A stretch of DNA of 21,020 nucleotides from Escherichia coli (lineage in GTDB: Bacteria > Pseudomonadota > Gammaproteobacteria > Enterobacterales > Enterobacteriaceae). The notes below the pieces were generated by a model, which was not told the DNA's origin, ran no database searches, and saw only the letters and a list, made by a program, of their open reading frames with translations. The translations under genes and the position numbers were made by a program. Position 1 is the stretch's first letter; every line of letters begins with the position of its first letter. Below, in pieces: positions 3,792-4,886 of the stretch. The stretch lies in assembly GCF_003334385.1 (NCBI RefSeq), contig NZ_QOWN01000060.1; one strand, written 5' to 3'.

Positions 3792-4886
3792 ATGAGCAGA
3801 CCGGACTGGGGGGCGTTGCAGCAGGAGTATATTGCTGAATACACCCGCTCCGGTATATCTCCGGTGGCATGGTGTGAAGCAAGGGGACTGAATTACGCAA
3901 CAGCCCGTCGTTACATCAAAAAAACTCCGAAAAATGCGCAGACAGAAATGTGCAAAACTGCGCAAAAAAGTGCGCAGAAAAAATCTGCGCAGACTGCACA
4001 AAAGCGGAACGAAAAATCTCAGGAAAAAAAGCCAGTATTCGATGCGGGCCTGAATGAGGGCGACGCGGAGGAATTTTCGTTCTGTCCCGATGAATTCGGC
4101 ATTTCTGACCAGCAGGCTAAGTTTGCGATGCTTGTTGCTCAGGGTAAAAAGCCGACAGAGGCGTACCGACTAGCCGGTTATGAGGGGCAAGGTGCGACAG
4201 CTAACAGCAACGCCAGTCGTATGCTTAGAAATGCCAGGGTTTTTCGCGCTATCAGCTACTTCCGCAATCAGTACCAGAAACGCTATACCGCAGACCTGGA
4301 TTTACTAGTGAGTCAGTTGATGGCTATTGTCCTGGCCGACCCCAATCAGCTTGCACAATTTCGCCGTGTTAACTGCCGTTATTGCTGGGGCGAGAATCAT
4401 CTCTACCAGTGGCGCGATATAGCAGAATTCGACAAGGCAGCGGCGCAGGCTTCCAGAGATGGCAAACCCGAACCGGAATATGGAGGCCTCGGCTTTGTTG
4501 ATAACGCCATACCCAATCCGGACTGCCCGAAGTGCTGCGGTGAGGGAACGGGACAGCTTTATATGGCTGATACCACTCTGCTTGATGGGGATGCGCGGCA
4601 ATTATATGCAGGGGCAAAATTCGGAAAATTCGGCGTTGAGATCCTGCTGGAGGATAAGGCTGCCGCCCGGCGTGAATTGTTGCGTTTGTTTTCTGCTGGC
4701 GGGGCTTTATGTGCAGATAAGCGGCTACAGGAACTGGAAATTGAACGGCGCAGAATGGAAAACCAGAAGCTGCGCAAAGAGATCGAAACGGTGGAAGATA
4801 ATGAACATCCCCAGCCTGTGGCGATCAATATTAATGTGGTTGATGCCAGAGTAAGGAGTGATGAAGATGATCTCTCCGACGCTTAA
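3792..4886 (+). CDS. Terminase small subunit (Terminase_2-like DNA-binding domain) with N-terminal HTH extension, Lys/Gln-rich repeat linker, CxxC...CxxC zinc ribbon and C-terminal coiled coil
   Basis: ATG 3792 with AGGA 7 nt upstream. Residues ~110-160 (QQAKFAMLVAQGKKPTEAYRLAGYEGQGATANSNASRMLRNARVFRAI) match the pattern of small-terminase N-terminal DNA-binding domains. Additional HTH-like ISPVAWCEARGLNYATARRYIKK near the N-terminus; CRYCWGENH...CPKCCGEG zinc ribbon; gene lies immediately upstream of and overlaps the large terminase. Confidence 0.75.
   Translation: MSRPDWGALQQEYIAEYTRSGISPVAWCEARGLNYATARRYIKKTPKNAQTEMCKTAQKSAQKKSAQTAQKRNEKSQEKKPVFDAGLNEGDAEEFSFCPDEFGISDQQAKFAMLVAQGKKPTEAYRLAGYEGQGATANSNASRMLRNARVFRAISYFRNQYQKRYTADLDLLVSQLMAIVLADPNQLAQFRRVNCRYCWGENHLYQWRDIAEFDKAAAQASRDGKPEPEYGGLGFVDNAIPNPDCPKCCGEGTGQLYMADTTLLDGDARQLYAGAKFGKFGVEILLEDKAAARRELLRLFSAGGALCADKRLQELEIERRRMENQKLRKEIETVEDNEHPQPVAININVVDARVRSDEDDLSDA
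3935..4000 (+). repeat. Array of TGCGCA palindromic hexamers in an A-rich context inside the small terminase gene (candidate pac / TerS recognition site)
   Basis: TGCGCA at 3935, 3959, 3971 and 3986, plus TGCACA at 3995 and TGCAAA at 3951, each preceded by AAA(A)N. The same stretch encodes the peptide repeat KTAQKSAQKKSAQTAQK. Confidence 0.45.

Follow-up and report, generated by a model that had tools for sequence, protein, structure and literature searches.

The terS gene and its hexamer array

The window analysed here, a 21,020-bp stretch of Escherichia coli DNA (contig NZ_QOWN01000060.1 of assembly GCF_003334385.1), is the late region of a Rac-like prophage and includes terS, the gene of the small terminase subunit (TerS), which carries in its 5' part an array of palindromic TGCGCA hexamers. 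An initial annotation of the same DNA had proposed this array as a candidate pac site. The gene consists of an N-terminal helix-turn-helix (HTH), a linker, and a core, with the array located inside the linker; the linker was assigned on basis of the AlphaFold predicted local distance difference test (pLDDT).

3792..4886, + strand: terS, small terminase subunit, 364 aa (PHROG 51, E = 1.7e-75; Pfam Terminase_2)
3792..3923, + strand: N-terminal three-helix HTH, terS codons 1-44, recognition helix ...NYATARRYIKK (from PacA profile matches and AlphaFold)
3933..4070, + strand: low-complexity K/Q/A/S/T linker, terS codons 48-93, predicted to be disordered (AlphaFold pLDDT <50)
3935..4000, no strand assigned: six-position palindromic hexamer array, four exact and two degenerate TGCGCA
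4086..4886, + strand: TerS core, comprising a Terminase_2-type HTH (residues 99-146) and the oligomerisation/C-terminal region

The early assignments of TerS to the Terminase_2 type and of a Mu F-like gene to the head module were borne out by matches to PHROG 51, Pfam Terminase_2 (PF03592, E = 3e-7, residues 122-321, which places TerS in this family), and Phage_Mu_F. The AlphaFold model of TerS, for which a 24-sequence alignment served as input, contains three helices within residues 6-44 (6-20, 24-30, and 35-38; pLDDT 69-82) and a confident helical domain at residues 99-146 (pLDDT about 88-90) that corresponds to the Terminase_2 HTH, and the pLDDT of residues 48-93, between these two confident helical domains, is below 50. 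The model agrees with the earlier suggestion of a flexible linker between two HTH-like regions, and the predicted disorder would leave the linker codons free for carrying a DNA signal. Comparison with solved structures gave no informative match for TerS or for the large terminase subunit (TerL).

Exact copies of TGCGCA are located at 3935-3940, 3959-3964, 3971-3976, and 3986-3991, and two further copies deviate by a single base (TGTGCA at 3949-3954 and TGCACA at 3995), with centre-to-centre spacings of 14, 10, 12, 15, and 9 bp and A-rich spacers in between. Together they occupy terS codons 48-70, i.e., the first 23 codons of the linker, in a region that encodes the peptide ...KNAQTEMCKTAQKSAQKKSAQTAQK.... 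The complete window contains 12 copies of TGCGCA, one third of which lie inside 57 bp. First-order Markov simulations of the window (n = 1000) never produced four TGCGCA per 60 bp (the maximum was three, reached in 3/1000), and nowhere else in the window does any complex hexamer occur at least four times per 60 bp. The four exact copies and the TGCACA variant of the initial annotation were confirmed by the sequence, whereas its TGCAAA variant at 3951 is better registered as TGTGCA at 3949-3954, in view of the exact TGCGCA that close relatives have there. The AAAnTGCGCAgA context that it had ascribed to the copies is found for three of the four exact ones and fails for the remaining one.

In an alignment of 21 distinct close relatives, the consensus has an exact hexamer at each of six gene offsets (143, 157, 167, 179, 194, and 203). 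The ancestral array has six members, the second and sixth of which became degenerate in the window through single substitutions; at the second position the close relatives have an exact TGCGCA encoded by the codons ATG CGC AAA, in a different reading frame. The family-wide consensus can be written as A-rich-(C)TGCGCA(R)AA, and the hexamer spacing within the family is irregular, ranging from 7 to 16 bp and mostly amounting to 12-14 bp. Five relatives from IMG/VR (L024, L047, L068, L071, and L091) have a truncated or frameshifted terS of 78-129 codons that ends just past the array, and keep 3-5 exact hexamers despite the short gene; these short open reading frames (ORFs) could result from sequencing errors in A-runs or represent recently inactivated prophages.

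Constraint on the hexamers was assessed by keeping the peptide fixed and resampling synonymous codons according to each gene's own codon usage. For the window, 0.40 TGCGCA copies were expected versus 4 observed (0/2000 simulations), and in 67 distinct homologous arrays the mean expectation was 0.46 versus 5.06 observed, with most arrays having no simulation that reached the observed count and no array exceeding 0.1%. Moreover, homologs write the hexamer as xxT GCG CAx (encoding AQ/AH), xTG CGC Axx (MR/VR/LR), or TGC GCA (CA). Two of these reading frames are used in 57 of the 87 distinct arrays of the ARR type (described below), three in 26, and one in 4, the window being among these last four because its frame-1 copy has mutated. 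The base that precedes GCG is T regardless of the preceding amino acid (N, T, S, P, D, G, F, or I). Hexamer density is 42.2/kb in the arrays versus 0.31/kb in the remainder of the same loci, a 137-fold difference, and column variability within the close clade is 0.060 for hexamers and 0.054 for HTH-coding positions, compared to 0.192 for spacers (Mann-Whitney p = 7e-5). The array is kept in E. coli, Klebsiella, Aeromonas (61% G+C), and metagenomic relatives, whereas copy number, spacing, and spacers turn over. Selection on the hexamers acts at the level of DNA and not of protein, and the alternative that the DNA repeat merely mirrors a repeat in the encoded peptide, which the initial annotation had put forward, is rejected on the basis of the synonymous resampling and the multi-frame usage in homologs.

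Array motifs and the N-terminal HTH among relatives

Relatives were collected with the N-terminal 50 residues of TerS as query against a phage collection and, in two scans, IMG/VR; the scans gave 567 and 137 confirmed relatives, and 80 loci were kept per scan. In every relative examined a short-motif array starts 1-3 codons past the HTH, and the motif differs with the recognition helix. The helix A-R-R-(Y/H)-I-K (87 distinct sequences) is followed by 3-8 copies of TGCGCA, with other motifs present in at most one copy; the helix A-K-R-(Y/H)-I-K (15 sequences) by 2-7 copies of TGCGAAT/ATTCGCA, often as the 12-bp palindrome TGCGAATTCGCA; and the helix A-R-T-R-I-K (12 sequences, from Stx2a-converting phages) by 4-5 copies of GATCAT in the strict 12-bp tandem GATCATGAAATC. 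The TerS cores behind this cassette of HTH and array fall into at least three PHROG families (51, 32222/641, and 370), and both main motif types were found with all three. Because the motif covaries with the HTH allele, independently of the core, the array is assigned on sequence grounds to the N-terminal HTH, and not to the Terminase_2 HTH or the core. A stronger argument than the helix association is that one motif per HTH type has been kept although copy number, spacing, frame, and spacers have turned over extensively.

The locus of Escherichia phage Rac-SA53 (L003 2412-3440) has a terS that is annotated as fused to an upstream gene through a deletion by which the N-terminal HTH was lost. 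The array of this locus is decayed, consisting of TGCGCA x2 and three single-substitution copies (TTCGCA, TGCGCT, and TGCCCA), which, as a single case, fits relaxed selection after loss of the reader.

Stx2_EH2086 (L011, about 1642-1683) and loci L099-L137, which are Stx2a 933W-like, combine the helix ARTRIKM with a GATC Dam site in each repeat, and the Stx2a arrays contain two TGCGCA about 50 nt beyond the 12-bp tandem. The GATC-bearing array resembles the Dam-controlled hexamers of phage P1, and these toxin-converting phages may use it as their pac site.

A second HTH family was encountered in phage pPE4, which shares the TerS core of the window at 93% nucleotide identity, from exactly position 4086, where the second TerS domain starts, and of which the N-terminal HTH belongs to an unrelated family (PHROG 1206). 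The pPE4 terS linker contains no TGCGCA and instead holds GTTTCCAC/GTGGAAAC repeats, i.e., GTTTCCAC x2 and GTGGAAA(C) x2. Relatives with a PHROG 1206-type HTH, gathered by tblastn against the phage collection, carry GGTAACCA, GGTTTCCA, GGTGACCA, or GGTTGCCA, with three copies in direct and one or two in inverted orientation, so that the 8-mers of these phages, GTTTCCAC included, differ in their central bases. Such GGTNNCCA 8-mers behind the PHROG 1206 HTH occur in phages of Enterobacter, Pseudomonas, and Providencia; a scan of IMG/VR with the pPE4-type HTH returned an identical copy only. The recurrence with an unrelated HTH suggests that an HTH combined with an array of its own sites is a general design.

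L004, 2320-2400: array of the second HTH family
L095, L096, L097, and L098, nt about 110-230 past the terS start: arrays of the second HTH family

Probable kinship with P1 pac and competing explanations

The N-terminal 80 residues of the window TerS match PHROG 1711, the family of P1 PacA, with an E-value of 1.7e-5, and PHROG 370 with 7.6e-16; P1 PacA itself matches PHROG 1711 at 4e-202 and PHROG 370 at 1.9e-4. An hhalign comparison of 51 distinct N-termini with PacA residues 1-60 reached 92.5% probability (E = 4.9e-7) and pairs ...NYATARRYIKK of the window with ...NPNTARRYLRA of PacA, and pairwise blastp of the window N-terminus and PacA gave 0.003. These similarities support, with moderate confidence, a distant homology between the N-terminal HTH of the window TerS and the N-terminus of P1 PacA.

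The pac site of P1 spans 161-162 bp within pacA and contains seven TGATCA/G hexamers with Dam sites, and synonymous recoding of these hexamers lowered packaging about 9-fold (PMC10028697); the complexity of this site has also been remarked on elsewhere (PMC11260489). In the annotated P1 record, in which pacA starts at 401, four TGATCA are found at about 593-640, followed by an integration host factor (IHF) site at 656-668, the mapped cleavage sites at 676-685, and three further hexamers at about 724-752, so that the hexamers correspond to pacA codons about 64-118. The window family resembles P1 in that the small-terminase gene carries several palindromic hexamers in its 5' part, immediately after the codons of the N-terminal HTH, and in that these hexamers are under a synonymous-site constraint that preserves them. 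It differs in motif (TGCGCA versus TGATCA/G), in layout (one six-hexamer cluster versus HEX4 - IHF - cleavage - HEX3), in the distance from the HTH (3 codons in the window versus about 20 in P1), and in the remainder of TerS, which is a Terminase_2/PHROG 51 core and not PacA. Klebsiella-type relatives have a second TGCGCA trio about 150 nt downstream of the array, in frames 2, 2, and 1 of the codons of the second HTH, which may represent a bipartite, P1-like layout.

L002, 2790, 2802, and 2828: second TGCGCA trio; the same offsets (347/359/385) recur in L046-L057, L082, and others

Other packaging systems have parts of this arrangement. In phage lambda, cosB (R3-I1-R2-R1), with the N-terminal winged HTH of gpNu1, likewise has repeated elements that adjoin the small-terminase gene and are bound by the N-terminal DNA-binding domain of its product; however, lambda packages by way of cos and has cohesive ends, its R elements are longer and lie upstream of Nu1 instead of inside the gene, and IHF is needed. 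The archetype of Terminase_2, G1P of SPP1/SF6, belongs to the same Pfam family as the window TerS core, and its pac (pacL-pacC-pacR) overlaps the 5' end of the TerS gene, but that system is without the extra N-terminal HTH and without an array of identical hexamers. Recognition in SPP1/SF6 involves an HTH ring that makes multiple contacts on bent, A-tract-rich DNA (PMC4737164, PMC9611059), and in vitro binding by SPP1 G1P is weak and largely sequence-independent (PMC9611059). P22 resembles the window in that pac lies inside terS (gene 3) of a headful packager (PMC9611059, PMC11260489), and differs in having a single, non-repeated, asymmetric 22-bp site in the middle of gene 3, away from the codons of the DNA-binding domain.

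The pac-site proposal of the initial annotation gains indirect support from the sequence comparisons, because the array covaries with a PacA-related HTH and because P1 pacA holds a proven pac site at the equivalent place. The TGCGCA array is probably a P1-like pac recognition array that is bound by the N-terminal HTH of TerS. Downstream of the array lies the gene of the presumed partner of TerS:

4858..6168, + strand: terL, large terminase subunit, 436 aa; overlaps the end of terS; presumed nuclease/ATPase

The window TerL has 40-51% identity to the TerL proteins of Kagunavirus, Jerseyvirus, and Dhillonvirus (about 44% in Jerseyvirus), and its match to the PBSX-family TerL of NCBIfam stays below the cutoff (31.7 vs 105 bits). 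For Jerseyvirus phages, headful packaging has been reported on basis of PhageTerm and pulsed-field gel electrophoresis (PMC10783031). By analogy with these TerL relatives, and since the head module includes an SPP1-like portal and a Mu F-like gene, headful packaging by the window prophage is likely. TerS binding, cleavage, and headful packaging are what we infer for this prophage, and they could be connected as follows. TerS would consist of the N-terminal HTH, a flexible linker of roughly 50 residues, and the oligomeric Terminase_2 core, such that several HTHs of one TerS oligomer could occupy adjacent hexamers, 9-15 bp apart, on DNA that would be bent or wrapped, with A-tracts between the hexamers favouring the bending. 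The HTH-bound array would mark concatemeric phage DNA, and TerL would be recruited and positioned for an initiating cut nearby, from which headful packaging would proceed.

Several observations weigh against recognition of the array as a pac site by the N-terminal HTH. Less than 30 bp separate the recognition helix from the array, and linkage alone could maintain their association. The metagenomic locus L172 (1200-1290), which may be an evolutionary intermediate, has an AKRH-IKGYT helix and an array of mixed composition, in which four GTGCGCA, spread over three frames, stand together with TGCGAAT and TTCGCA, and P1 PacA has an ARRY helix, yet its motif is TGATCA; because of these two cases, residue 39 alone does not set specificity. 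Only four of the six ancestral hexamers are intact in the window allele, which may mean that the site is weakened or the prophage defective. The architecture of P1 is not reproduced, because neither an IHF consensus (WATCARNNNNTTR) near the window array nor a second hexamer cluster (at most one mismatch) within 3700-4500 was found; Dam control is absent, since TGCGCA is without GATC; and the window TerL has no detectable similarity to P1 PacB. Finally, the segment 3925-4010 folds as RNA to -29.8 kcal/mol (z = -4.85), with 0/200 shuffles being as stable.

A rule in which Arg39 reads C5 and Lys39 reads A5 was considered as well, and is weakened by L172, by P1, and by the tight physical linkage. 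At least eight switches are required on a neighbour-joining tree of codons 1-35, but these can be accounted for by recombination.

The alternative that survives best, albeit an unlikely one, accepts that the N-terminal HTH binds the hexamers, and assigns this binding to autoregulation of the late/terminase operon or to another role outside packaging. The comparative evidence that links HTH to motif applies to it equally, and autoregulators typically have sites within their own gene. However, in P1 the homologous module has been proven to be a pac site (PMC10028697), every occurrence of the cassette is joined to a TerS core and adjoins terL, and terS needs no internal promoter.

Very unlikely is the explanation that the UGCGCA units pair in the terS mRNA, or in single-stranded DNA, and thereby tune translation, stability, or the terS/terL stoichiometry. 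The folding of the window segment agrees with it, as do z-scores between -2.3 and -5.1 in several homologs, but good folding is expected from any array of palindromes, and the predicted topologies vary among homologs, being nested in some and side by side in others. A Yersinia array of mostly direct TGCGAAT units has a z-score of only -1.33, close to the -1.35 of the proven P1 pac, which does not outperform its shuffles; the paired bases never vary, so that covariation carries no information; and the change of motif with the HTH allele is left unexplained by RNA structure.

More improbable again is an explanation without involvement of TerS, in which the hexamers are recognised by another factor, such as a regulator of host or phage origin, or a restriction-modification or methylation system specific for TGCGCA. 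This hexamer is a palindrome of the type II style, the P1 hexamers are Dam methylation sites, and just upstream of terS the prophage has two genes of interest here, one ParB-like/methyltransferase-associated (1885-2676) and the other glycosyltransferase-like (2648-3601); nevertheless, in hosts as diverse as Aeromonas, Yersinia, Klebsiella, and E. coli, a different neighbouring HTH allele goes along with a different motif, the array start is fixed at 1-3 codons past the HTH, and restriction avoidance predicts depletion of sites, whereas enrichment is seen. Least probable of all is that the array is a functionless by-product of replication slippage, i.e., of in-frame duplications of 12-15 bp (S/T)AQK units in a disordered linker: the linker is of low complexity and predicted to be disordered, and copy number does change by whole units (L018 and L035 are one unit short, and the strict 12-bp tandems of the Stx2 type have 4 or 5 copies), but synonymous resampling rejects this origin in 67/67 arrays, 83/87 arrays use two or three frames for the hexamer, T precedes GCG whatever the amino acid, the spacing is irregular (7-16 bp), and the spacers diverge while the hexamers remain constant.

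The element is real and selected at the DNA level, and it is probably a pac recognition array of the P1 kind on a different terminase.

Prophage surroundings, prevalence, and implications

The genes around terS and terL in the window are the following.

272-1747: trkG, K+ transporter gene
1885-2676: ParB-like nuclease-domain gene
2648-3601: glycosyltransferase-like gene (PHROG 842, beta-glucosyl-HMC-alpha-glucosyltransferase, 6e-104)
3537-3788, + strand: small ORF, 83 aa, directly upstream of terS (PHROG 309 match)
6171-7577: portal gene, SPP1-like
7558-8673: Mu F-like gene (Pfam Phage_Mu_F, 2.4e-8)

As in Rac, the prophage has trkG in its interior, where the gene separates the lysis module from the packaging module. 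The ParB-like gene and the PHROG 842 gene hint at DNA modification functions beside the packaging genes. The small ORF at 3537-3788 matches the middle part (145-218 of 319) of another small-terminase family, PHROG 309 (E = 8e-23), and has no match in Pfam or NCBIfam; it may be the remnant of a displaced terS or encode a small accessory packaging protein.

A 309-bp segment at the 5' end of terS was found in 883 out of 5426 complete E. coli genomes, with at least 99% identity in 548 of the 883, and related cassettes occur in prophages of Klebsiella, Yersinia, and Aeromonas as well as in Stx2-converting prophages. Literature searches found neither TGCGCA-type arrays nor a cassette of HTH and array described, and for the matching phages they gave no data on packaging; the near-identical vB_EcoS-...R entries correspond to in silico prophages. 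Sequence-specific recognition of pac by headful small terminases has been described as unclear and controversial (PMC9611059), and a recent review of TerS leaves PacA unmentioned and calls pac recognition unresolved. The small terminases of P22, Sf6, and SPP1 bind DNA weakly or non-specifically in vitro; the family described here offers a dedicated N-terminal HTH together with an easily mutated, multi-copy hexamer array of which natural specificity variants exist.

It is a serious possibility, although short of probable, that the HTH and the linker array of its own sites constitute a portable packaging-specificity cassette of about 290 bp that is moved by recombination between unrelated cores. 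With the same reserve, the cores that exchange it would be those of PHROG 51, 32222/641, and 370 and of PacA, and the design would recur with the PHROG 1206 HTH. If this reading is true, the natural HTH/motif pairs ARRY-TGCGCA, AKRY-TGCGAAT, and ARTR-GATCAT can be employed for dissecting pac recognition, and the position of the site within a few codons of its reader may favour loading of nascent TerS in cis. Moreover, a known pac site would make lateral and generalised transduction from these prophages predictable, and would enable the design of packageable phagemids as well as the crippling of packaging by synonymous recoding, as in P1. Finally, if the cassette design is general, pac sites and their specificity would be readable straight from sequence.

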